From an uncultured Gemmatimonadales bacterium (lineage in GTDB: Bacteria; Gemmatimonadota; Gemmatimonadetes; Longimicrobiales; RSA9): a stretch of 64,000 nt of DNA. Both the position numbers and the translations under genes were made by a program. The notes under the pieces were generated by a model. That model was not told where the DNA came from, made no database searches, and saw only the letters and a list, made by a program, of their open reading frames with translations. Positions 5,618 to 62,341 of this stretch are shown one piece after another (positions within the stretch are counted from its first letter, which is position 1; the number at the start of each line of letters is the position of its first letter). The stretch lies in contig OY970192.1 in NCBI GenBank assembly GCA_963708135.1, forward strand, positions 4,512,001 through 4,576,000, in the 5' to 3' direction.

Positions 5618-7758
5618 GCGCAGCCCGTCCGGTGACGCCCGGCCGACCCGCCGCCGCCCTCCTGGCCCTCCTCCTCGCCGGGGCCGCCCGGCCGCTCGCG
5701 GCGCAGCGCGAGCCGCTCACGGGGTTCACGCCGCAGGGCTCGGCCGCGGAGCGCGCGCTGGAAGCCGACGCCGTGGCCCGGATCGCGCCGGCCGAGCTCG
5801 ACTCGTTCTCGTACGCGCTGACGCGCCGGCCCCATGTGGCGGGCTCGCCCGAGCAGGCCGCCACCCGGGACTGGGTGCTCGACCACACGCGCGACTGGGG
5901 GCTCCGCAGCGAGTCGAAGGGCTACAGCGTCTACCTGCCGTGGCCCACGGCCCTCTCGCTCGAGATGATCGTGCCGGAGCACCGCGCTTTCGAGCTGCAC
6001 GCGCAGGCGCTCGAGGGGGATCCGACCAGCGCGCTGCCGCAGTTCCCGTGGGTGAACGGCTACTCCGGCACGGGCACGGCGGTCGGGCCGCTCGTCTACG
6101 TCAACTACGGCCTGTACGAGGACTACGCCGCGCTCGACTCGCTGGGCGTGAGCGTGAAGGGGAGGGTCGTGCTGGCCCGCTATGGCCGCTCGTACCGCGG
6201 CATCAAGGCCCGCCTCGCGCAGCAGCACGGCGCATCGGCGCTGATCATCTACTCGGACCCCGAAGACGACGGCTTCGTGCGCGGCGACGTCTTCCCCGAC
6301 GGGCCGTACCGCAATCCGAGCGCGGCGCAGCGCGGCAGCGTGCTGAACGGCGACGGCGATCCCACCACCCCGGGCTGGCCGAGCACGTCCGGCGCGAAGC
6401 GGGTGGATCCCACGAGCACGCCGTGGCTCGAGTTGCCCACCATCCCGGTGATCCCGGTGAGCTATCGCGTGGCCGAGCCGCTGCTCCGTGCGCTGCACGG
6501 GGCCGACCTGCCGCAGCAGGCGTGGCAGGGTGGACTGCCGTTCCGCTACCACGTCGGGCCGGGGCCCGCGGCCGTGCGCGTCACCGTGGCCGATGACCGG
6601 GCCACGCGCGGGATGAAGGACATCTGGAACACCGTCGCGTGGGTGCCTGGCTCGGAGCGGCCGGGCGAGTGGATCGTGATCGGCGGGCATCGCGACGCGT
6701 GGGATGCGGGCGCGAACGACAACGTGAGCGGGACGAGCGCGGTGCTCGCCGCCGCGCGCGCCGTCGCCGAGCTGGCGCGGGAAGGGAAGGGGCCCCGCCG
6801 CACGCTGGTCTTCGCCACCTGGGACGCCGAGGAATGGGGACTGACCGGCTCGGTCGAGTGGGTCGAGGAGATGGCGGACCAGCTCGGCGCGAACGCCGTG
6901 GCCTATATCAACCAGGATGCCATCGCCAGCGGCGCGCGCTTCGGCGCGAGCGCCTCGCCCTCGCTCAAGGCCTTCGTCCGCGGCGTCACCCGCGCCGTGA
7001 CCTCGCCCGAGGGCGGCACGGTCTACGACCACTGGAGGGAGGAGGGGCCCCCCGCGCCGGCGGCGGATGGCGACGTCGCCCTCGGAAACCTCGGCGGCGG
7101 CAGCGACTTCGCCGGCTTCTACAACCACCTGGGCATCCCCAGCGCCTCCTGGGGCTTCGGCGGCGGCAGCGGCGAGTACCACTCGACCTACGACGACTAT
7201 ACCTTCGAGTCCGAGTACGGCGACCCCGGCTTCGTCCACCACGCCGCCAGCGCACGGCTCGCGGCCGTGGCCGCGCTGCGGCTGGCCGATGCCGCCGTGC
7301 TGCCCTACGATTACGGCGAGTTCGCGCGCGAGCTGCGCGCGGCCGTCTTCCGGCTGCAACGCCAGGCCGTGGACGCGCAGCTCGACAATGCGGCCCTGGT
7401 CCGCCTGGACAGCGCGTTCGCGCGCATGGAGGAAGCCGCGGCCGCGTTCGCCGGCGCCCGCGACGCCGCGCTCGTCCGCGCCGCGCCGCCCGCCGCGCTC
7501 GACTCGGCCAACCGGCACCTCATGCTCGTGGAGCGGTCCATGACCCGCCCCGAGGGGCTGCCCGGCCGGCCGTGGATGAAGAACCTCGCCTTCGCCTCCG
7601 ACTTCCGGAACGGCTACGCCACGATCGTGCTGCCGGCGGTGGCCGAGGCCATTCGCGCGGCCGACGCCGGGCGCATGGCCGTGGAGGCCGACGACCTGGC
7701 CCGGCGGGTGGCTGCCGCCACCGAACACCTCCGCCAGGCCGCCGCCGCGCTCCGCTGA
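5614..7758 (+). CDS. Secreted M28 peptidase, glutamate carboxypeptidase II / transferrin-receptor-like (PA domain and TfR dimerisation domain)
   Basis: GTG start overlaps the hutF stop (GTGA). Signal peptide ending PLAAQ; motifs YVNYG, QRGSV, GDPTTPGW, GGHRDAW, DNVSG, WDAEEWG and YHSTYD. Confidence 0.88.
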   Translation: MSAARPVTPGRPAAALLALLLAGAARPLAAQREPLTGFTPQGSAAERALEADAVARIAPAELDSFSYALTRRPHVAGSPEQAATRDWVLDHTRDWGLRSESKGYSVYLPWPTALSLEMIVPEHRAFELHAQALEGDPTSALPQFPWVNGYSGTGTAVGPLVYVNYGLYEDYAALDSLGVSVKGRVVLARYGRSYRGIKARLAQQHGASALIIYSDPEDDGFVRGDVFPDGPYRNPSAAQRGSVLNGDGDPTTPGWPSTSGAKRVDPTSTPWLELPTIPVIPVSYRVAEPLLRALHGADLPQQAWQGGLPFRYHVGPGPAAVRVTVADDRATRGMKDIWNTVAWVPGSERPGEWIVIGGHRDAWDAGANDNVSGTSAVLAAARAVAELAREGKGPRRTLVFATWDAEEWGLTGSVEWVEEMADQLGANAVAYINQDAIASGARFGASASPSLKAFVRGVTRAVTSPEGGTVYDHWREEGPPAPAADGDVALGNLGGGSDFAGFYNHLGIPSASWGFGGGSGEYHSTYDDYTFESEYGDPGFVHHAASARLAAVAALRLADAAVLPYDYGEFARELRAAVFRLQRQAVDAQLDNAALVRLDSAFARMEEAAAAFAGARDAALVRAAPPAALDSANRHLMLVERSMTRPEGLPGRPWMKNLAFASDFRNGYATIVLPAVAEAIRAADAGRMAVEADDLARRVAAATEHLRQAAAALR

Positions 7759-40853: not shown

Positions 40854-40876
<23 letters not shown>
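40493..40876 (-). CDS. Small zinc-ribbon membrane protein (hypothetical)
   Basis: CPHC-x10-CQRC followed by one TM helix; overlaps the prkA 3' end. Start uncertain. Confidence 0.65.
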
Positions 40877-42953
<2,077 letters not shown>

Positions 42954-43049
42954 CGCTCCTACTCCTTCGAAGGGACCGGCTATGCGGGTGCGTTGGAGGC
43001 TGTATGGGCTACACGGCCCGGAACGGCGGAGTTCCTGGCCGGAACGCGT

Positions 43050-44909: not shown

Positions 44910-46670
44910 GTGAGCGAACACTTCCGTTTCCCGCGCGCGCCCAATCACGCCGACCGGATCCAGTGGCGGCCCTGGGGGCAGGACGCCTTTGACGAGGCGG
45001 CGCGGGAGGATCGGCCGCTGCTCCTCAACCTGACGGCCGTCTGGTGCCAGTTCTGTCGCGAGATGGACGAGACGACGTTCTCGGATCCCGATGTCATCCA
45101 GATCCTGAACGATCGCCTCGTGCCCGTGCGCGTCGACGCCGACCGCCATCCCGAGGTGCAGGACCGCTACATCGCCGGCGGCTGGCCGACCAACGCGTTT
45201 CTCACGCCCACCGGCGAGGTGCTCTGGGTGGGGACCTTCCTGCCGGTGGGCGAGCTGCTCGGTGTGGCGCGCAGCGTACTCGGCGCGTGGGGCTCAAAGC
45301 GCGATGAGCTCGAGCTCGAGGTCGGGCGCCGCCGCCGCGCGCTCGAGGCCGCGCGCTCGCGCCGCCCCGCCATGGGGCTCGTCCGCCGCGACGCCGCCGA
45401 GGACGTGCTGAACGGCGTCCGCGCCTCCTACGACCAGCGCAACGGCGGCTTCGGGCAGGCACCGAAGTTCCCCTATCCCGACGCCATGGAGCTCCTCGTC
45501 GCGCACGCCGCTCGCTCCGGCGACGTGACCTGGCGCGAGATGGCCGTGCGGACGCTGGACGGAATGGTCGCCGGCGAGCTGTGCGACAACGTCGAGGGCG
45601 GCTTCTTCCGCTACGCCCTGGCCGAGGACTGGACCCAGCCGCGTCACGAGAAGCTGCTCGCCACGTGCGCCGGACTCGTCCGCGACTACGCGCTCGGCGC
45701 TCGCCTGGAGGGCCGCGCCGACTGGCGGGAGCTCGCGGAGCGGGGCGTCGCCTGGGTCGATGCCACCCTGCGCCGCGACGATGGATTCTGGGGCGGCAGC
45801 CAGGCCGCCGACGAGACCTACTTCTCCGCCGGCGCGCAGGAGCGCGCCGGAATGCCCGCCCCGCGTATCGACCGCTCGATCTACACCTCCGCCGTCGCCT
45901 CCTGGATCCGCACCCTCGCCGAGGCCGGCGCCGGTCTTGGCCGCGCCGCCTGGGTGGACGCGGCCGCCGCCGCGTTTCCCCGGCTCCTCGAGCGCATGCG
46001 GGCCGGCAATGGGCTCCTCCATCATTACGAGGACGAGGACGAGCCGACTCCGGCGGTCCCCGGGCTCCTCGTGGATGCGCTGGAGGCCGCGCGCGCGGGC
46101 GTCGCCCTGAACCAGGTGACCGGCAACGCGGCCGCCCTCGAGACCGCCGCCGCGCTGGCGCACGCCATCGAGCGACACCTCTGGGCCGACGGCGGCGGGT
46201 TCCTCGACCGCGCGCACGAGGCCGGCGAGAGCGGCGCCCTGCGCTACCGCGACATGCCGTTCGAGGCGAACGCGCAGGCCGCCCGGCTGCTGCTCGACCT
46301 CCATCACGCCACCGGCGAGCGCAGCTGGCGCGCCCTCGCCGAGCGCGTCCTGGCCACGCTCTCGCCGCTCGCCGGCCGCCACGAGGTCGCCGGAGCCGCG
46401 TTCGCGCTCGGCGTCGAGGAGTACTTCCAGCCGCCGCCCGCGTTCGTGCTGATCGGCGAGGGCGAGGCGGCCGCCGCGCTGCGTGCCGCCGCCCTCGCCC
46501 TACCCCTGCCCGCACGACGTCTGTGGACGCTCCCCTCGGGCGGCCGCATCCTGGGCCGCAGCTTCGCGGCCGCGCCGGCCCCGGAGATCCTCCTTTCCGG
46601 ACCGCACGGCTGGTCCGCCCCGGTGCGCGCGCCTGAGGCGCTGGCGGACGCCGTCGCGGGCGTGCTCTAG
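44910..46670 (+). CDS. YyaL/Spata20-like protein (DUF255 thioredoxin domain and six-hairpin domain)
   Basis: IQWRPWGQDAF, WCQFCREMD, GGWPTNAFLTP, GGFGQAPKFP and GGFFRY. Confidence 0.87.
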   Translation: MSEHFRFPRAPNHADRIQWRPWGQDAFDEAAREDRPLLLNLTAVWCQFCREMDETTFSDPDVIQILNDRLVPVRVDADRHPEVQDRYIAGGWPTNAFLTPTGEVLWVGTFLPVGELLGVARSVLGAWGSKRDELELEVGRRRRALEAARSRRPAMGLVRRDAAEDVLNGVRASYDQRNGGFGQAPKFPYPDAMELLVAHAARSGDVTWREMAVRTLDGMVAGELCDNVEGGFFRYALAEDWTQPRHEKLLATCAGLVRDYALGARLEGRADWRELAERGVAWVDATLRRDDGFWGGSQAADETYFSAGAQERAGMPAPRIDRSIYTSAVASWIRTLAEAGAGLGRAAWVDAAAAAFPRLLERMRAGNGLLHHYEDEDEPTPAVPGLLVDALEAARAGVALNQVTGNAAALETAAALAHAIERHLWADGGGFLDRAHEAGESGALRYRDMPFEANAQAARLLLDLHHATGERSWRALAERVLATLSPLAGRHEVAGAAFALGVEEYFQPPPAFVLIGEGEAAAALRAAALALPLPARRLWTLPSGGRILGRSFAAAPAPEILLSGPHGWSAPVRAPEALADAVAGVL

Positions 46671-46680
46671 GCCTCTCCTC

Positions 46681-47808
46681 GTGGACGCCGAGCGGGGGCC
46701 GCTGCGCGCCGAGCTCACGCGGGCGTTCGCCGACGGTGCGGACACGACCTGGCCGGACGAGCGCTTCGACACCCTCGCCCGCCGCATCTTCCACTATCAG
46801 TTCGAGCGGGTGCCCGCGTACGGCGCCTACTGCCGCCGTCGCGGAGCCACGCCGGACCGCGTCAACCACTGGACCGGCATCCCGGCGGTGCCCACCGCCG
46901 CCTTCAAGGAGGTCGCCCTTGCGGCCGGCGGCGGCGCGGACGCGCAGGCGGTGTTCCGGACCAGCGGCACGACCCGCGGGCGGGAGCGCAGGGGCGTCCA
47001 CCACATCCTCGAGCTCGCCCTCTACCACGGCTCGCTGATCGCCGCCTTCCAGGCCTTCCTGCTCCCCGACGGCGCCCACCTCCCGATCCTCTCGCTGGTG
47101 CCGCGCGCCATCGACGTGCCGGACTCGTCCCTCTCCCACATGGTGGACACCCTCATGGAGCGCCTCGGCAAGGCGGGCGGAGGCCATTACGCTGATCCGG
47201 CGGGCGGGCTGGACGACGTCCGGCTCGATCCCGACCTGGACGCCCACGAGGCGGCCGGGACGCCGGTGCTTCTGCTCGGCACGTCCCTCGCCTTCGCTCA
47301 CTGGCTCGACCGCCTCTCCGCGGCGGGCCGGCGGCACCGCCTGCCCCTCGGGTCGCGCCTCATGGACACCGGCGGGTTCAAGGGCCGGCGCCGGCAGGTC
47401 GATGCCGCGGAGTTGCGCCACGCGTACGGCGATCGGCTCGGCGTCCCCGACGACCACTGCGTGAACGAGTACGGAATGACAGAGATGCTGTCGCAGCTCT
47501 ACGACGCGGCGCTGCGCGACGCCGTGCGCGGCGGCGCGGGGGAGCCCCGCCGCAAGCAGGGTCCGCCGTGGGTCCGCTCGCTCGTGGTCGATCCCGAGAC
47601 GCTGGAGCCTCTGCCGGAAGGCAGCGAGGGGCTGCTCCGCCACGTGGACCTTGCCAACCTCGACGGAGTCGCCGCCATCCAGACCGAGGACTTCGCCCGC
47701 TCGACTGGCGACGGCCTGCTCCTCCTCGGCCGCGCCGCCGGCGCGCCGCCGCGTGGCTGCTCGATCGCCATGGACCTGCTCATCGAGGCGGCGGAACGGG
47801 ACCGGTGA
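46681..47808 (+). CDS. LuxE-like acyl-protein synthetase
   Basis: IPAVPTAAFK, FRTSGTT, MDTGGFKGR, EYGMTEMLSQ, DLAN...IQTED and C-terminal RGCS. Confidence 0.85.
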   Translation: MDAERGPLRAELTRAFADGADTTWPDERFDTLARRIFHYQFERVPAYGAYCRRRGATPDRVNHWTGIPAVPTAAFKEVALAAGGGADAQAVFRTSGTTRGRERRGVHHILELALYHGSLIAAFQAFLLPDGAHLPILSLVPRAIDVPDSSLSHMVDTLMERLGKAGGGHYADPAGGLDDVRLDPDLDAHEAAGTPVLLLGTSLAFAHWLDRLSAAGRRHRLPLGSRLMDTGGFKGRRRQVDAAELRHAYGDRLGVPDDHCVNEYGMTEMLSQLYDAALRDAVRGGAGEPRRKQGPPWVRSLVVDPETLEPLPEGSEGLLRHVDLANLDGVAAIQTEDFARSTGDGLLLLGRAAGAPPRGCSIAMDLLIEAAERDR

Positions 47809-49211
47809 CCACCCTCGATGCGTTCCACCTGCCCGGCCTCGAGGAAGGCGACGTCGCCCGCTGGGAGTTCCGCGACTTCGACGCGTTCCGCCTCCGCTGG
47901 CCCCGGCTGCACCCCGCCGGCCTCTCCCGACAGGTGGCCCGGCTGCGCGCCGCCCGCGCGGCAGCCCTGCGCGACATGCCGGCCGAACGCGTGCTCGAGC
48001 GTATCGCCGCCGCGGCCGAGCGCCTGTGCGACCCCGCGCTGTCGCTACGCGCCACCGCGGAAGAGGCGCTGCCCGCAATCACCGGCTACTCGCGCCCGAT
48101 GGTGCGGCTCATCCTCGACCGCATGGCTCCGGACTGGACGGCCGCCGCCCTCGATCGCCTGCTCCGAGCCGAGCTCCCCGACCCGCGCGTCCTCGACCGG
48201 TTCCGCCCCCATCCGGATGCCGCGCAGACCTGGGTACGGGCGTTCGGGCCCGCTCTCGCCTTCCACGTCTTCTCGGGAAACGTGCCGGGCGTCGCCGTCA
48301 CGGCCATTCTGCGCGCGCTCCTGGTCAAGGCCGCGGTCCTCGGCAAGACCGCGTCCGGCGAACCGCTCCTGGCCCCGCTCTTCGCCCGCGCCCTCGCCGC
48401 TGTCGATCCGGCGCTCGGCCGGACGGTCGCGCTCACGTACTGGCCGGGCGGAACCGAAGCCCTCGAGGAAGTCGCGTTCCGCGAGGCCGACGCGGTAGTG
48501 GTCTACGGCGGCGAGGAGGTCGAGCGGGAGGCGCGGCGCCGGATGGAGGTCGGCGCCCGGCTGGTCGTCCACGGGCCGCGCTACTCGCTCGGGCTCGTCG
48601 GGCGGGAGGCGCTCTCGGAGGTCGCGGCGCCGGCCGTCGCCCGGGCGGTCGCGCGCGCGGTCGCCATCTTCGACCAGCACGGCTGCGTCTCGCCGCACCT
48701 CGTCTACGCCGAGCGTGGCGCCGCCGTGGCTCCTCGTGCCTTCGCGCGCCTCATCGCCGACGCGCTCCGGACGCTCGAGGAGGAGCTGCCGCGAGGCCCG
48801 ATCACCGGAGCCGAGGCCGCCCTCATCCATCAGGAGAGGGCCGCGGCGGAGTTCCGCGGCCACGCGGGTGGCGCCGGCGAGGTCCTTGCCGGCAGCGGCA
48901 CCTCCTTCACGGTGGCCTACGAGGAATCGCCCCGCTTCGAGCCGTCCTGCCTGAACCGGTTCCTTCGCGTGAAGCCGCTGGACGAGCTCGACGACGCGGC
49001 CGGGCACGTGCGGCCGTTCGGGCGTTACCTGCAGACCGTGGGGCTGGCCGTGGACACGGGGCGAGCGGCCGCGCTGGCGGAAGCGTTCGGCCGCCTGGGC
49101 GCCTCGCGCATCGCGCCCTTCGACGCCGTCCCGTGGCCGCCGCCCTCATGGCATCACGACGGCCGCGGGCCCCTCCGCGAGCTGCTCCGCTGGACGGACA
49201 TGGAGCCGTGA
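47805..49211 (+). CDS. LuxC-like acyl-CoA reductase
   Basis: HVFSGNVPG, VVYGG, HGPRYS and FDQHGCVSPH (catalytic Cys position). GTGA overlap with the luxE-like gene. Confidence 0.85.
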   Translation: MTTLDAFHLPGLEEGDVARWEFRDFDAFRLRWPRLHPAGLSRQVARLRAARAAALRDMPAERVLERIAAAAERLCDPALSLRATAEEALPAITGYSRPMVRLILDRMAPDWTAAALDRLLRAELPDPRVLDRFRPHPDAAQTWVRAFGPALAFHVFSGNVPGVAVTAILRALLVKAAVLGKTASGEPLLAPLFARALAAVDPALGRTVALTYWPGGTEALEEVAFREADAVVVYGGEEVEREARRRMEVGARLVVHGPRYSLGLVGREALSEVAAPAVARAVARAVAIFDQHGCVSPHLVYAERGAAVAPRAFARLIADALRTLEEELPRGPITGAEAALIHQERAAAEFRGHAGGAGEVLAGSGTSFTVAYEESPRFEPSCLNRFLRVKPLDELDDAAGHVRPFGRYLQTVGLAVDTGRAAALAEAFGRLGASRIAPFDAVPWPPPSWHHDGRGPLRELLRWTDMEP

Positions 49212-54345: not shown

Positions 54346-55179
54346 ATGTCGAGCGAATCTCCGCGGGTCTCCTCCGCGCCCGAGCTCGAGACTGTGCCGC
54401 AGCCGGACGCGGCCGGCTCGGAGGAGGGCAAGTACGTCTACTGCGTCATCAAGAGCGCCGACAGCCGGGAGTTCGGGCCGATCGGCATCGGGGAGGGCGG
54501 CAACCGGGTCTACACCGTGCACCACCAGGATCTCGCGGCGGTCGTCAGCGACACGCCGATCCGCATCTACGACCCCACCCGCGAGAACGTGCTCGCGCAC
54601 GAGCTGGTGAACGAGAGCGTGATGCGCGAGTTCACCGTCATCCCGATGTCCTTCGGCACTATTTTCAGGACCAAGGACGACATTGTCGAGCTGCTGAAGT
54701 CGACCTACCGCGCCTTCGACGATGTGCTCGAGAAGATGCGCGACAAGATCGAGTTCGGCCTGAAGGTGCTCTGGGACCGGGAGAAGGTCGTTGCCCGCCT
54801 CGAGGAGGACGACGAGGAGATCCGCCGCCTCAAGCAGGAGATCACCGGCAACGCCCAGAGCTCGACCTACTTCGCCCGGATGCAGCTCGGCCGCCTCATC
54901 GAGAGCGCGCTCGAGCACACGGCCAACGTCTACGTCGTCGATATCCACGAGTCGCTCAAGCCGGTCGCCGTCGCCAGCCGATCCAACAAGCCGATCGGCG
55001 ACCGCATGATCATGAACGCCGCCTATCTCGTCGAGCGCTCCCGCGAGCACGACTTCGATGAGGCCGTCAAGGCGCTCAGCCGGAAATACGAGGAGCTGCT
55101 CTCCTTCAAGTACACCGGTCCCTGGCCGCCCTACAACTTCGTCAACATCAAGCTCCGCCTGGAGCGGGCGGACGCCTGA
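54346..55179 (+). CDS. gvpF: Gas vesicle protein GvpF/GvpL family
   Basis: YVYCVI, DLAAVVSD, LAHELV, TVIPMSFGTIF, EFGLKVLW, NAAYLV and YTGPWPPYNFV. Confidence 0.9.
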   Translation: MSSESPRVSSAPELETVPQPDAAGSEEGKYVYCVIKSADSREFGPIGIGEGGNRVYTVHHQDLAAVVSDTPIRIYDPTRENVLAHELVNESVMREFTVIPMSFGTIFRTKDDIVELLKSTYRAFDDVLEKMRDKIEFGLKVLWDREKVVARLEEDDEEIRRLKQEITGNAQSSTYFARMQLGRLIESALEHTANVYVVDIHESLKPVAVASRSNKPIGDRMIMNAAYLVERSREHDFDEAVKALSRKYEELLSFKYTGPWPPYNFVNIKLRLERADA

Positions 55180-55182
55180 GCC

Positions 55183-55593
55183 GTGGGGCTCCTCAAGCAC
55201 CTGCTCCTCTGGCCCGTGACGGGGCCTCTCTTCCTGACCGAGTTCTCGCTCGGCAAGGTGCAGGGCGTCGTGCGCCAGGAGCTCACCGATGACTCCGCCG
55301 TCAAGGCGGAGCTCCTCGAGCTGCAGCTCCAGCTCGAGCTCGGCGACATCGACGACGAGGAGTACCTCCGCCGCGAGGCCGCGCTCATGCGCCGGTTCCG
55401 CGAGATCCGCGAGTGGCGCGAGCGCTTCGGCATGGCCGTCGCCGGAGGGCTCGTGGGCGTGGCCGGGTCCGAGACGCCGCCGTCTGGCGACGAGGCGCTG
55501 GAGGAGGAGCGTGTGCCGGAATCCCGCCCCGACGAGCCCGCGGTCGCCGATCCCCACGATGCGACCATCGACGTGAATCTCGACTGGGAATAA
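55183..55593 (+). CDS. gvpG: Gas vesicle protein GvpG
   Basis: LLLWPVTGP...ELTDDSAVKAELLELQLQLELGDIDDEEYLRREAALMRR; follows gvpF. Confidence 0.85.
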   Translation: MGLLKHLLLWPVTGPLFLTEFSLGKVQGVVRQELTDDSAVKAELLELQLQLELGDIDDEEYLRREAALMRRFREIREWRERFGMAVAGGLVGVAGSETPPSGDEALEEERVPESRPDEPAVADPHDATIDVNLDWE

Positions 55594-55596
55594 GCC

Positions 55597-57465
55597 GTGG
55601 CCGACCGCCTCGCCGAGCGGCTCCGCGCGCGCCTCACCTTCGTGGTGGGCAAGGGTGGCGTGGGGAAGACGACGACGGCGTGCGCCCTCGCCCTCGCCTC
55701 CGCCGATGCCGGACGGCGCACTCACCTCGTCTCCACCGATCCCGCCCACTCGCTGGGCGATGTCCTGGATGAGCCGGCCGGCGCCGAGCCGCATCCCAGC
55801 CGCTGCTCGCCCCTGCTCACCCTCGAGGAGCTGGATGCGCCCATCCGCGGCCGTGATTGGCTCGACGCCTGGCGCACACCGCTGGCCGGCCTCCTCGAGC
55901 GTGGGACCTACCTGGACGCCGAGGACGTCGACCGCTTTCTCGAGCGGACCCTGCCCGGCATCGACGAGGTGATCGGCGCGCTCCGGCTGGTGGAGCTCGA
56001 GGCCGGGGATGCCGACCGGATCATCGTGGACACCGCCCCCGCCGGACATACGCTTCGGCTGCTCGATGTGCCCGCGCTGCTCGACGGCTGGGTCGATGCG
56101 CTCCGCGCCATGGCCGACAAGGCCGGGGCCGTCGCCCGCGGCCTGCTCGGCCGCGACGTGGCGGATCCGGCCGCGCCGCTCATCCACGAGCTCGAGCGGG
56201 GAGCCGTCGATCTCCGGGATCGAGTGCTGGCCGACGCCGACTTCGTGATCGTCTCCCGCGCCGAGCCGACCGTGCGCGCGCAGACCCGGCGGCTGGCCAC
56301 CGCTTTGCGCGCCCGCGGAATCGAGCCCGCCGCGGAGCTGCTGGTCGGGGCGCCGGCCGGTGCGCCGGGCGCGGCCGACGCCGGGCTGGTGCTGCCGGTG
56401 CCATGGCTCGCGGGGCTCCGGGGCTGCGCCGGGGTGCGCCGGTGGCGTTCCGGTCCGGGTGCAGCGCCGGCCGCACAGCCAGCCATCTCCGCGGCCGCGG
56501 AAGACGCCGAGGCCGGCCGGTCAGTCGGGCGGGAAGGGACCGCGCACGGTCGCCGCCGGGCCGCCGATCGCTGGTGCGTGGAGCGCGCGCGGGGGCTCAA
56601 CCTCTTCGCCGGGAAGGGCGGTGTCGGCAAGACGACATGCGCCTGCGCGCTTGCGCTCGCGCTGGCGGAAACGCGCCCCGTGACGCTCTTCAGCGCGGAC
56701 CCGGCGGGCTCGCTGTCCTCGGTCCTCGACGCGGAGATCCCCGAGGGCGGGGCCCGGCTGGGCGAGTTGCGCGTCCACCGGTCCGAGGCAGCCGCGGACC
56801 TCGCCGCGATCAGGGAGGCGCACGGCGCGAAGGTCGAGGAGGCGCTCGGTCGCCTGGGGATCGGCGGCCACGCCGAGCTCGATCGCCGGGTCCTCGAGGC
56901 GCTCTGGGGGCTCGCGCCGCCCGGAATCGACGAGATCGCCGCCCTGTTGGAGATGCTCCGCGCCACCGAGACGGATGCGGTGGTCGTGGTGGACGGCGCC
57001 CCGACCGGGCACTTCCTGCGGCTGCTCGAGATGCCCTCGACGGCTCTCGACTGGTCTCACTCGCTCATGCGCGTGTTCCTGAAATATCGTGTTTCCTACG
57101 GCCTTGACGAGGTGGTCGAGGGGGTGCTAGAGTTTGCGAACCGATTGAAGGATTTGATTTTCCGGCTCGAGGATCCGGCGCGCGCGGCCGCCTGGGTGAT
57201 CACGCTTCCGGAGCCCGTCGTACGGGCGGAGACTTCGCGCCTCACGCGCGCGCTCGCCCGCTCCGGCGTGCCGATCGCCGCCATCGTGACGAATCGGGCC
57301 GAAGCCGGCCCGCCCGGGCGCGGACGCCGAGGGTCCCGCGAGCGCCAGGCGGACGGTTCCCCGATTCCCGAGGTTCCCCGCCTGTTCGCCCCCGCCCTCG
57401 TGAAGCCGCCGGTCGGCCCGGACGCATTGCTCGCCTTCATCCACCGCTGGGAGCTCCAGGCTTGA
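55597..57465 (+). CDS. Tandem-domain ArsA/Get3-family (SIMIBI) ATPase
   Basis: Two KGGVGKTT deviant Walker A motifs; switch I STDPAHSL and SADPAGSL; two PGIDE motifs; switch II DTAPAGHT and DGAPTGHF. Confidence 0.92.
   Translation: MADRLAERLRARLTFVVGKGGVGKTTTACALALASADAGRRTHLVSTDPAHSLGDVLDEPAGAEPHPSRCSPLLTLEELDAPIRGRDWLDAWRTPLAGLLERGTYLDAEDVDRFLERTLPGIDEVIGALRLVELEAGDADRIIVDTAPAGHTLRLLDVPALLDGWVDALRAMADKAGAVARGLLGRDVADPAAPLIHELERGAVDLRDRVLADADFVIVSRAEPTVRAQTRRLATALRARGIEPAAELLVGAPAGAPGAADAGLVLPVPWLAGLRGCAGVRRWRSGPGAAPAAQPAISAAAEDAEAGRSVGREGTAHGRRRAADRWCVERARGLNLFAGKGGVGKTTCACALALALAETRPVTLFSADPAGSLSSVLDAEIPEGGARLGELRVHRSEAAADLAAIREAHGAKVEEALGRLGIGGHAELDRRVLEALWGLAPPGIDEIAALLEMLRATETDAVVVVDGAPTGHFLRLLEMPSTALDWSHSLMRVFLKYRVSYGLDEVVEGVLEFANRLKDLIFRLEDPARAAAWVITLPEPVVRAETSRLTRALARSGVPIAAIVTNRAEAGPPGRGRRGSRERQADGSPIPEVPRLFAPALVKPPVGPDALLAFIHRWELQA
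57104..57133 (+). promoter_or_regulatory. Candidate internal sigma70 promoter inside the ATPase gene
   Basis: TTGACG-18 bp-TAGAGT with an extended TGn, inside a locally AT-rich, rare-codon patch. Confidence 0.5.
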
Positions 57466-58262
57466 GCCAGACCATCTACCTTTACGGCTTCGTGCCCGTG
57501 GGGACCCGGCTCCCCGAGCCGGGCCTCGCCGGGATCGCCGATCGGCCGGTCGAGCTCCTGGCCGTGGATGGCTGCGCCGCGGCGTTCAGCCGCGTCCCGG
57601 CGGAGGACTACGCCCCCGAGGAGGTGGAGGCGCGCGCCCGCGAGTTGAGGTGGGTCGCGGAACAGGGAGTCGCCCACGAGCGCGTCGTCGCCTGGTTCGT
57701 GGATCACGCCCGTATCCTGCCGGCGCCGCTGCTCACGCTCTACTCCTCCACGCCCGCGCTCGAGGCGCGGCTGCGGGAGCGGGAGAGCGAGATCGTGGCG
57801 CAGCTCGAGCGCTTCGCGGGGCTGAGGGAATGGGACCTGAAGGTGGCCTACGACGCGGCGATCCTCGAGCGGCACCTGGGCGACGCCTCCGAGGAGATCG
57901 CCGCCATCGACGAGCGCATCTCCACGGCCACGGCGGGGACCCGCTTCCTGCTCGAGCGGCAGCGGGCGGAGCGGGTGGGGGAGGAGCTCGGCAGGGCGGC
58001 GCGGCGGCTCGCCTCCGAGTTGTTCGATTCCCTCGCCCGCAACGCGGCGGAGGTGCGGGTCCTTCCGCTCGAACGTTCCGCCGGCGAGCTGCCGGTCGTC
58101 CTCGCCGCGGCGCTGCTCGTCGCCTCCCCCGCCGAGGAGGCGCTCGTACGCGAGGCGCGCCGGCGGGCGCAGGCGCTCGAGGCGCTCGGCGTCGATGTCG
58201 CCTTCTCGGGGCCCTGGGCACCGTACCGCTTCCTCGAAGCGGCGGAGGGCGCGGCCGGGTGA
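57462..58262 (+). CDS. gvpL: Gas vesicle protein GvpL/GvpF family (second copy)
   Basis: IYLYGFV, AHERVV, EWDLKV and FSGPWAPYRF. TTG start overlaps the ATPase stop. Confidence 0.85.
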   Translation: MSQTIYLYGFVPVGTRLPEPGLAGIADRPVELLAVDGCAAAFSRVPAEDYAPEEVEARARELRWVAEQGVAHERVVAWFVDHARILPAPLLTLYSSTPALEARLRERESEIVAQLERFAGLREWDLKVAYDAAILERHLGDASEEIAAIDERISTATAGTRFLLERQRAERVGEELGRAARRLASELFDSLARNAAEVRVLPLERSAGELPVVLAAALLVASPAEEALVREARRRAQALEALGVDVAFSGPWAPYRFLEAAEGAAG

Positions 58263-58460
58263 GCGCCGGGCACGAGGTCTCGGAGGAGCTCCGACTGGTG
58301 GAGCTCGTCAGCCGCGTGCTCGACCGCGGCGTCGTCGTCTCCGGCAATGTCGTGATCAGCGTGGCAGGCGTGGATCTCGTCTATCTCGGGCTCGAGCTCG
58401 ATGCTGACCTCGGTCGAGACCATGCGACGATACGGGTCCCCCCGTGGCGGGGAGCTCTGA
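58259..58460 (+). pseudogene. GvpA-family minor protein (GvpS/GvpJ/GvpM-like) with a +1 frameshift
   Basis: LVELVSRVLDRGVVVSGNVVISVAGVDLVYLGLEL, then an extra base near 58400. Removing it gives MLTSVETMRRYGSPRGGEL*. Confidence 0.8.
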
Positions 58461-59145
58461 CCGCGTGTGGTATGCCTACTGCATCGTGGCGCCGGAATGC
58501 CGGCCACCTGAGGATCTAGCGGGGATCGGCGGTGGCATGGTCGAGGCGCGCGGCCTCGGCCCCTTCGGCTGCTGGCTCTCGCCCCTCGATGCGGTTCCCA
58601 CGCCGAGCATCGACGCGGTCCGCCGGCACAATGACATCGTCGAGCACGCAATGGCAGCCGGAGATACGCCGCTGCCGCTCCGCTTCGGCCAGTGCTTCGG
58701 CTCGCTCGAGGCGCTCGATGCGGCGTTCGACGAGAGAGAGGAGCGCCTTTCGGCCGCCCTCGCGGCCGTGGCCGGCTGCGCCGAGTACGGCATCCAGGTC
58801 CTCGACCCGGCGCGCGAGCGCATCCCGGCCGCGTCCGCCGCCGCGCCGGCGGGCAGCGGCCGCGAGTATCTGCGCATGCTGGCCGTCCGCCAGGCGGCGG
58901 AGCGGGCGATCGATTCGCGGGGACGCGAGCTGGCGGCGGAAATCCGTGCGCAAGTGGGTGCCGCCGTTGAGGGTGAACGCATCGAAGCGCTCCAGACGAC
59001 GCACGGCATCGTGCGACTGGTCCATTTGGTGCATCACGACGCCGGAGGGCGGTACCTTGAAGGGTTGGATGTGGTCCGTGCTCGCCTGCCCGAGCTTCGA
59101 TTCCTGGTCAGCGGCCCGTGGCCGCCCTACTCCTTCGCCGGATGA
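58444..59145 (+). CDS. Gas vesicle protein GvpL/GvpF family (third copy)
   Basis: WYAYCIV, HNDIV, PLPLRFGQ, EYGIQV and VSGPWPPYSFA. Confidence 0.85.
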   Translation: MAGSSDRVWYAYCIVAPECRPPEDLAGIGGGMVEARGLGPFGCWLSPLDAVPTPSIDAVRRHNDIVEHAMAAGDTPLPLRFGQCFGSLEALDAAFDEREERLSAALAAVAGCAEYGIQVLDPARERIPAASAAAPAGSGREYLRMLAVRQAAERAIDSRGRELAAEIRAQVGAAVEGERIEALQTTHGIVRLVHLVHHDAGGRYLEGLDVVRARLPELRFLVSGPWPPYSFAG

Positions 59146-59516
59146 GTGACGGAGCACAGGCGCCGGAGCGGCGGGCGCCAGGGTCTGCCCGGCTGGACGC
59201 GGACGACCCCGAGCTCTTCGCGGCGGAGCTGAGCGAGCTGGCGCCGTCGCTTCCGGCACGGATCGATGCGACCCGCGACACGATCGACAGCGGCCTCGCC
59301 AAGCTGGTGCTGACGCTGATCGAGTTCATCCGTCAGATCCTCGAGCACCAGGCCGTGCGGCGGATGGAGGGCGGCTCGCTTTCCGACGAGGAGGTCGAGC
59401 GGCTTGGACTGGCGCTCATGCGCCTGCAGGAGCGGCTGGAAGAGGTCAAGGCGACCTTCGGGTTGAGCGGCGAGGATCTCAACATCGATCTCGGCCCGCT
59501 CGGACGACTCCTTTAG
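59142..59516 (+). CDS. gvpK: Gas vesicle protein GvpK
   Basis: GLAKLVLTLIEFIRQILEHQAVRRMEGGSLSDEEVERLGLALM...DLNIDLGPLGRLL; ATGA overlap. Confidence 0.93.
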   Translation: MSDGAQAPERRAPGSARLDADDPELFAAELSELAPSLPARIDATRDTIDSGLAKLVLTLIEFIRQILEHQAVRRMEGGSLSDEEVERLGLALMRLQERLEEVKATFGLSGEDLNIDLGPLGRLL

Positions 59517-59530
59517 ACGGGGGCACGCGC

Positions 59531-59842
59531 TTGGCTGAACGATACGAGTTGGGCCCGCACCGCTCGCAGGGGCTGGTGGACATCCTCGACCGGATCCTGG
59601 ACAAGGGACTGGTGATCGCGGGCGACATCAAGGTCAATCTGGCGAACGTCGAGTTGCTGACGATCCAGATCCGACTTCTCGTGTGCTCGGTGGACAAGGC
59701 GGATCAGATCGGGCTGAACTGGTGGCGCACCGATCCCGCGCTGAGCGCGCGACCCGATATCGACCGTCTCGACTCGATCGGCGAGAAGCTCGATCGACTG
59801 GAGAGGCGGCTGGCCGCGATCGAGCGTGGTTCCATTGACTAG
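59531..59842 (+). CDS. gvpJ: Gas vesicle protein GvpJ (GvpA family)
   Basis: [53 protein letters not shown]. Confidence 0.88.
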
Positions 59843-59874: not shown

Positions 59875-60171
59875 ATGGCCGTTGAAAGGGCACCGGCTGG
59901 AAACAGTCTGATCGATGTTCTCGACCGGGTACTCGACAAGGGGATCGTGATCGATGCCTACGTTCGCGTCTCGCTGGTCGGCATCGACCTGGTGAGCGTG
60001 GAGGCCCGGATCGTGGTGGCGTCGGTGGAGACCTACCTCCGCTACGCCGAGGCGATCGGCCAGACGGGGGTCGCATCGCGGCCGCTCATGACGTCCGGCG
60101 CGACCTCGGACCTGGAGCGCGTGATGGCGGAGAACGTCGAGCTCAGGAAGAGGCTGGAAGAGCTGGGCTAG
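59875..60171 (+). CDS. gvpA: Gas vesicle major shell protein GvpA
   Basis: [59 protein letters not shown]. Confidence 0.93.
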
Positions 60172-60172
60172 C

Positions 60173-62341
<2,169 letters not shown>

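Follow-up and report, generated by a model that had tools for sequence, protein, structure and literature searches.

What a tandem ATPase of the Get3/ArsA family does inside a gas-vesicle gene cluster is the question raised by a stretch of DNA from an uncultured Gemmatimonadales bacterium (assembly GCA_963708135.1, contig OY970192.1, positions 4,512,001 to 4,576,000). This stretch of 64,000 nucleotides, referred to below as the window, has a G+C content of 72% and carries one compact gas-vesicle (gvp) cluster with all genes on its plus strand. Within the cluster, the open reading frame (ORF) at 55597–57465 (+) remains open from a GTG start and encodes a 622-residue protein built as a fused pseudo-dimer, assigned to the Get3/ArsA family by motifs, family models, alignment and tree. 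The motifs, the inserts, the tree and the hidden Markov model (HMM) cut-offs all agree with the Get3-like identity proposed in a preliminary description of this DNA and support a Get3-like protein rather than a true ArsA. Tentatively, and with somewhat less than an even chance of being right, the protein is read here as a gvp-dedicated SIMIBI (signal recognition particle, MinD and BioD) ATPase of the Get3 branch that would serve as a putative holdase for a segment of a Gvp protein.

The protein matches Pfam ArsA_ATPase (PF02374) as two stretches, at 231.1 bits against a cut-off of 24.3, and the family model TIGR00345 (GET3_arsA_TRC40) at 240.7 bits against a cut-off of 135. The N-terminal half contains the P-loop GKGGVGKT (residues 18–25; as GKGGVGKTT, residues 18–26, at 55648–55674), STDPAH with D48, LPGIDE (residues 119–124; 55951–55968) and the switch II motif DTAPAGH (residues 145–151; 56029–56049). 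The C-terminal half contains GKGGVGKT (residues 339–346; as GKGGVGKTT, residues 339–347, at 56611–56637), SADPAG with D368, PPGIDE (residues 441–446; 56917–56934) and DGAPTGH (residues 466–472; 56992–57012), all on the plus strand, and the presence of PGIDE in both halves is as originally described. In both halves the P-loop is a deviant Walker A, and all 26 close homologues keep it, the catalytic Asp and switch II unchanged. The AlphaFold2 (AF2) model is a closed pseudo-dimer, with a predicted local distance difference test score (pLDDT) of 83 and a predicted template modelling score (pTM) of 0.84. The helical pair that follows switch II in the N-half (residues 158–211; 56068–56229, +) is modelled as helices 158–184 and 193–211 and exceeds that of ArsA by about 14 residues, at the position of the TRC40-insert, while the corresponding pair of the C-half (residues 470–525; 57004–57171, +) is about 20 residues longer. 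An Ala/Pro/Gly-rich linker (residues 251–330; 56347–56586, +) joins the halves and is mostly of low model confidence, with pLDDT <50 at residues 257–262 and 288–320.

Comparison with related tandem proteins separates the window protein from ArsA at several levels. The alignment sets the window protein and 15 further gvp-linked tandem proteins against 13 of the ArsA type. The span after switch II in the N-half measures 77–79 residues in 16/16 gvp-linked proteins against 65–67 in 13/13 ArsA, and that in the C-half 71–72 residues against 50–56, with one ArsA at 63. In both halves, the extra residues sit where ArsA has its second cysteine and Get3 its TRC40-insert, which in Get3 forms a hydrophobic groove together with the extended helices 7–9. 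PGIDE itself is carried by yeast and human Get3. By sequence, the best solved relative is Chlamydomonas reinhardtii ARSA1 (5zme), which scores 142.5 bits for the whole chain and 142.7 and 127.7 bits for the halves, whereas ArsA reaches at most 115. In a half-domain tree of 91 rows, the ArsA halves all fall into a single clade without any gvp-linked half (Shimodaira–Hasegawa-like approximate likelihood-ratio test, SH-aLRT, 99). The 32 gvp-linked halves stand apart from ArsA, next to single-domain archaeal and bacterial homologues, and the 16 gvp-linked N-halves, including that of the Nostoc protein L131, form one clade (SH-aLRT 97). The phylogeny proposed in the preliminary description shows no clustering with true ArsA. 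Moreover, a single shared fusion is rejected: forcing all N-halves together costs 76.3 log-likelihood (lnL) units, with p-AU 0.001 in the approximately unbiased (AU) test, for a group that was named after the tree had been seen, though it is the natural single-fusion hypothesis. A CxxC motif occurs in six gvp-linked relatives from other phyla, following the N-half in L015, L017, L018, L021 and L023; a fused chain may not need the CxxC zinc clamp (Farkas et al. 2019, PMC6593721).

The residues that would define an arsenite pump are replaced throughout. A true arsenite-efflux ArsA that merely happens to sit in a gvp cluster would account for the tandem architecture and the fold, which agree with ArsA, and for the automatic names carried by homologues, such as 'arsenite-transporting ATPase'. 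However, the protein fails the ArsA equivalog model TIGR04291, with 155.8 bits against a cut-off of 650. The three metalloid cysteine columns, which we take to be C113, C172 and C422 in E. coli numbering, hold Cys in 13/13 ArsA-type proteins, whereas none of the 16 gvp-linked proteins has Cys at any of them; these carry L/V/I/W in the first column, a variable residue in the second and G in the third. The window residues at these positions are L115, A189 and G443. Specifically, LPGIDE replaces the ArsA segment 'ACTTEIAAFDE' bearing the first metalloid cysteine and stands opposite 'SGACTTEIAAFDE' of L. ferriphilum ArsA in the alignment, and G443 within PPGIDE stands at the third metalloid cysteine (SPCTEE). 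Gene context points the same way against an arsenite pump. An arsD gene lies immediately upstream of 9/13 aligned ArsA-type tandem genes, and one of the 13 comes from an annotated arsRDABC plasmid. The genome of the window encodes no ArsD or ArsB anywhere, no arsenic gene lies near the ATPase, and the sole Acr3 of the genome, at 2.83 Mb, is some 1.7 Mb away from the ATPase at 4.57 Mb, which is itself the only ArsA-family gene in the genome. The missing ArsA Cys motif and the missing ars neighbours, both remarked on earlier, are borne out and extend to all 16 gvp-linked proteins and to the whole genome, respectively. Because the ATPase lacks the Cys triad, fails the equivalog model, has no arsD or arsB partner and falls outside the ArsA clade, its sequence indicates that it is not an arsenite-pump subunit; the true-ArsA explanation has next to no chance of being correct and is already refuted by sequence within reach of the tools used.

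The cysteines that the window protein does contain lie at positions 29, 70, 277, 327, 348 and 350 and form no CxxC. C70 (55804–55806) and C277 (56425–56427) are invariant in the 26 close homologues (43–51% identity) and are both missing from the 15 other gvp-linked proteins; C348 lies at 56639–56641. Because the pair comes and goes together, its distribution suggests a subclade-specific disulfide or small metal site.

The ATPase belongs to the gas-vesicle cluster, as supported by synteny conserved across phyla and metagenomes. Within a phylum sample of 301 genomes, searched at a threshold of E <= 1e-30, matches to the ATPase occur in 11. Besides the window genome, ten genomes match; in nine of them the gene order is the same, with the ATPase gene flanked by gvpG and gvpL, and the tenth match is an arsD-linked ArsA. 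The nine in-phylum clusters include those of two unpublished genomes (G097 and G157), which also enter the trees and alignments. Six further gvp-linked loci were found in Acidobacteriota, Chloroflexota and Rokubacteria; they come from an 80-locus search on a generic P-loop pattern, the rest of which are mostly unrelated ArsA/MinD-type loci and served as outgroups. The gene is likewise gvp-linked in an annotated Nostoc sphaeroides plasmid. Additionally, a metagenome scan with the clade motif PTGHFLRLL returned 120 loci, with flanks for 80; the other 40 are at most 626 nt long and not judgeable. The ATPase is encoded at 51 of the 80 flanked loci, the remaining 29 being chance pattern matches, and at least one gvp gene lies beside it in 48 of the 51 contigs, the three exceptions being contigs of 1.9–2.4 kb. 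Its most conserved neighbours are gvpL/F-family genes and often gvpG, not gvpA.

The junctions within the window tie the gene closely to its neighbours. The gvpG stop codon TAA (55591–55593) is separated by a gap of 3 nt from the GTG start of the ATPase at 55597, and the ATPase stop codon TGA (57463–57465) overlaps the TTG start of gvpL (57462–57464). The spacing of 3 nt and the presence of an overlap with gvpL are as first reported for this locus; the overlap measures 4 nt. An overlap of a few nucleotides between the end of the ATPase and the start of gvpL is also present in L109, L110, L111 and L114, according to ORF calls made for this analysis. Together, these results show that the ATPase is inherited with gvpG and gvpL and coupled to them in translation.

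The preliminary description had further suggested that the ATPase stands in for GvpN. On that view, it would supply the energy-dependent step of shell growth in clusters without this AAA+ protein. GvpN is not found in the window genome, where the best match scores 26 bits against a cut-off of 266.8 (TIGR02640), nor in any of the ten related genomes with an ATPase match, nor in any of the 301 sampled genomes among the eight candidates scored per genome; positive controls of the search reached 388 and 347 bits. Metagenome clusters that share the gene order of the window cluster likewise show no GvpN within the contig DNA examined. All of this would fit a replacement, but the distribution of the ATPase does not. 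Gas-vesicle genes occur in 22 of the 301 sampled genomes, and nine of these 22 carry a gvpF-G-L-S-(F2)-K-J-A cluster that lacks the ATPase as well as GvpN. No real ArsA-family gene exists anywhere in those nine genomes or in one further genome with a differently arranged cluster, which yield only P-loop matches of 26–29 bits. A tree built on the concatenated Gvp proteins pairs the window cluster, as sister, with one of these ATPase-free clusters, which belongs to the same family and whose concatenated Gvp proteins are 75% identical. Conversely, the ATPase and GvpN occur together in one cluster in the Nostoc plasmid, an Anaerolineales locus and the metagenome contig L191, and a Terriglobia genome encodes both, its GvpN gene lying at another locus. 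In addition, gvpN is present in four of the five cluster types described by Castillo and Saier (PMC2963123), the ATPase itself gives no match to AAA+ GvpN, and its fold and mechanism are unlike those of AAA+ proteins. No feature of gvp-protein length (GvpG, L, S, K, J, A) tracks the presence or absence of the ATPase. With syntenic clusters that do without both ATPases and others that hold the two side by side, a general replacement for GvpN is not supported, and a substitution confined to GvpN-free clusters is itself improbable.

The preferred reading, a Get3-branch holdase, implies a defined nucleotide-driven cycle. Binding of ATP would close the two helical subdomains into a clamp around a Gvp-protein segment of hydrophobic or amphipathic character, which hydrolysis would then free. 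The client may be the GvpA/J/S core, a plausible choice already proposed in the preliminary description, or else the N-terminal helix of GvpG, and delivery may proceed via the neighbouring GvpL/F scaffold. The hydrophobic-clamp idea derives from membership of the Get3/ArsA family, and hydrophobic grooves with a general chaperone role have been predicted for tandem bacterial Get3 homologues (Farkas et al. 2019, PMC6593721). Since gvpL/F genes, and often gvpG, are the conserved neighbours, the gene order suggests that the ATPase acts at the GvpL/F (and GvpG) step, and since closely related clusters do without it, the protein would be an auxiliary quality or yield factor rather than an essential core part. 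Extended to the gvp-linked tandem ATPases as a class, the proposal that they are ATP-gated holdases for GvpA/J/S or the GvpG helix and hand their clients to the GvpL/F scaffold is possible but rather doubtful. A complex prediction for the ATPase with GvpL scored 0.00 in both runs, which were made without controls, and counts neither way.

The same neighbourhood is open to a different explanation, in which the protein is a nucleotide switch or positioning ATPase of the MinD/ParA/FlhG kind that recruits or spaces the GvpL/F scaffold, or the vesicles themselves, and holds no unfolded client. The common SIMIBI class, weak P-loop matches to MinD/ParA models and the soluble nature of the GvpL/F-family products encoded by the most conserved neighbours would suit such a switch, as would the conserved polar residues within the subdomain helices (K175, W486, R492 and Y497). 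Full-length similarity is nevertheless to Get3/ArsA and not to MinD/ParA, both halves keep the Get3-type inserts, and no membrane-targeting or DNA-binding segment is seen in the ATPase, so that a positioning role appears unlikely.

Several observations weigh against a Get3-type holdase and account for its tentative standing. The analysis yielded no client or partner protein, and in B. megaterium GvpF and GvpG have already been proposed as GvpA chaperones (PMC11445434). Of the 163 residues in the eight subdomain helices, 32% are charged and only 3 are Met, so that these helices are not Met-rich. In a Foldseek search against the PDB, closed ArsA (query-normalised template modelling score, TMq, 0.64) ranks above ARSA1 (0.58), and because of this order the fold cannot separate ArsA from the Get3 type; the half-domain tree, for its part, was built without eukaryotic Get3. 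The nucleotide sites are also not fully matched. The claim of two complete motif sets holds for the P-loop, the Asp, PGIDE and switch II of both halves and fails at the strand-motif Asn (VVNA/VNR/INGV) of the N-half, which the 15 remaining gvp-linked proteins and every one of the 13 ArsA proteins keep and which is Gly250 (56344–56346) in the window protein. This Asn presumably contacts the nucleotide base, and its replacement may weaken the N-terminal nucleotide site and leave the halves unequal. Most of the 26 close homologues show T-G or V-G at the place of Gly250. Finally, presence of the ATPase on the Gvp tree requires at least five changes among 19 clusters, four of them forced by well-supported branches, and in the relative G271 the gene is divided into two ORFs of 236 and 451 aa (L113:9144–10836), which represent either decay or a split form. 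Because of these changes and the one split gene, the ATPase is often dispensable.

Such a pattern of gain and loss could also mark a nearly neutral passenger gene heading for loss. The repeated presence and absence among close clusters, the two ORFs in one genome and the fast evolution of the ATPase, which is 35–43% identical where GvpF is 73–81% identical, are all compatible with drift. They are opposed by catalytic motifs that stay invariant in both halves, by a cluster position conserved across at least five phyla and 48 metagenome contigs, and by the retained translational coupling with gvpL, which together make a passenger very improbable.

The other genes of the cluster are all on the plus strand as well. 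The gvpF ORF is open from 53974, with a likely start at ATG 54346 (54346–55179; Pfam GvpL_GvpF, 261.7 bits). Its N-terminal extension from 53974 is Arg/Pro/Ser-rich and has a tblastn match in no related locus; because this stretch is not conserved, ATG 54346 is the likelier start and the upstream stretch is probably untranslated. On the minus strand, a frame that runs from about 54098 to 53466 opens with a lipoprotein-like signal (LLAVCTSGLAAC), continues as coiled-coil-like sequence and has no family match. The gvpG gene (55183–55593; Pfam GvpG, 54.2 bits) encodes a hydrophobic N-terminal helix, with a maximum Kyte–Doolittle hydropathy over 19 residues (KD19) of 1.28 at residues 1–19. Downstream of the ATPase lie gvpL (57462–58262; Pfam GvpL_GvpF, 159 bits), which shares 4 nt at its start with the end of the ATPase gene; a gvpS/M-like small GvpA-family gene (58259–58519; Pfam Gas_vesicle, 42.6 bits), whose GTG overlaps the gvpL stop; a second gvpF/L-family gene (58444–59145; Pfam GvpL_GvpF, 138 bits); gvpK (59118–59516; Pfam GvpK, 116 bits); a gvpJ-like gene (59531–59842; Pfam Gas_vesicle, 61 bits, with NCBIfam GvpJ/GvpA matches under cut-off); and gvpA, encoding the major shell protein (59875–60171; NCBIfam PRK09371 GvpA, 112.7 bits against a cut-off of 100). 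The 5.45-Mb genome has three GvpA-family genes, all inside this cluster. Get3/TRC40 factors bind and deliver tail-anchored clients, with Get1/2 and Get4/5 as partners. The Gvp proteins of the window all lack a transmembrane-like segment at the C-terminus, and their highest KD19 is 1.94, in the GvpS core.

The window cluster contains no gvpN, no hsp20 and no Cdc48-type gene. A full CDC48-family gene is present in the same genome about 380 kb from the gvp cluster (G000:C1:4186034–4188256; 988.7 bits against a cut-off of 802.65), a CDC48-type gene lies within the Anaerolineales gvp cluster, and in the Nostoc plasmid the Get3-like gene has a double-AAA gene after it. In the metagenome cluster L185, a PhyH-type dioxygenase gene (6323–7315; 61 bits) lies between gvpF and gvpG, and gaps of about 1 kb like that of L185 are found in L182 and L210.

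The gvp cluster is flanked by a divergent histidine kinase on one side and a PAS histidine kinase on the other. The latter (722 aa; 60173–62341, +) directly follows gvpA, and PAS kinases of about 710 aa adjoin gvpA in the gvp clusters of Terriglobia, Vicinamibacterales and Rokubacteria (L017, L021, L023), with a response regulator after the kinase in Terriglobia and Rokubacteria. The PAS kinase is probably a conserved regulator of the gvp cluster. Farther upstream, a LuxE-like acyl-protein synthetase and a LuxC-like acyl-CoA reductase stand side by side (46483–49211, +) with a PrkA kinase upstream (40854–43049, −), and these genes appear unrelated to the gvp-linked ATPase.

A dedicated helper of this kind would matter beyond the present locus. 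Gas vesicles serve as genetically encoded ultrasound reporters, and in heterologous hosts their assembly is limited by shell proteins that are proteotoxic and prone to aggregation (PMC11445434). An ATP-driven factor that many soil and aquatic bacteria have added to their clusters could raise gas-vesicle yields. If the holdase reading is true, bacterial Get3 homologues would gain their first defined physiological client, and a Get3 chaperone would be seen to serve not a lipid membrane but a gas-filled organelle with a shell of protein. Nearly identical clusters that differ in having or lacking the ATPase form natural pairs, ready for experimental comparison.

Among known systems, the window gene is a further member of a class whose link to gvp genes has been in print since 2010, with a role that is here putative. 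In several phyla, gvp clusters were reported by Castillo and Saier (2010, PMC2963123) to contain two-domain ArsA homologues, for which they proposed a role in energising biogenesis. Their clusters 4 and 6 resemble the window in combining a two-domain protein of about 600–640 aa with gvp genes and no arsR (PMC2963123), and the gvp-linked Nostoc protein L131 groups with the window protein in the half-domain tree, which places the latter in their class. The examples of that study, from Chlorobi, Bacteroidetes, Geobacter and cyanobacteria, mostly have gvpN and often hsp20, whereas the window cluster has neither, and the available text of the study does not call the protein Get3-like (PMC2963123). 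Tandem bacterial Get3 homologues with TRC40-inserts were described with their function left open in 2019 (Farkas et al., PMC6593721). Like the window protein, they have two Get3-like domains per chain, an insert after switch II in both and no ArsA cysteines; they differ in coming from Cyanobacteria, Myxococcales and some Proteobacteria and in mostly carrying CxxC, which the window protein lacks, and no gas-vesicle link is drawn in the accessible part of that paper (PMC6593721). No paper joining gas vesicles with Get3 was found in a literature search that lay outside subscription journals.

GvpN (AAA+, TIGR02640) is likewise an ATPase of gvp clusters, but its fold is unrelated; some clusters encode it alongside the Get3-like protein, and others have neither. 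ArsA of E. coli R773-type plasmids and of L. ferriphilum (1f48, 9nbo) shares the tandem SIMIBI pseudo-dimer and gives the best fold match (TMq 0.64), yet differs in its metalloid Cys triad, its shorter helical subdomains and its arsD/arsB context, and forms a separate clade with a fusion independent of that in the gvp-linked proteins. C. reinhardtii ARSA1 (5zme/5zmf) is a tandem protein like that of the window, with PPGLDE and PPGVDE in the places of LPGIDE and PPGIDE; it differs in being a eukaryotic protein of a chloroplast pathway with about 30% identity or less, and it binds tail-anchored proteins.

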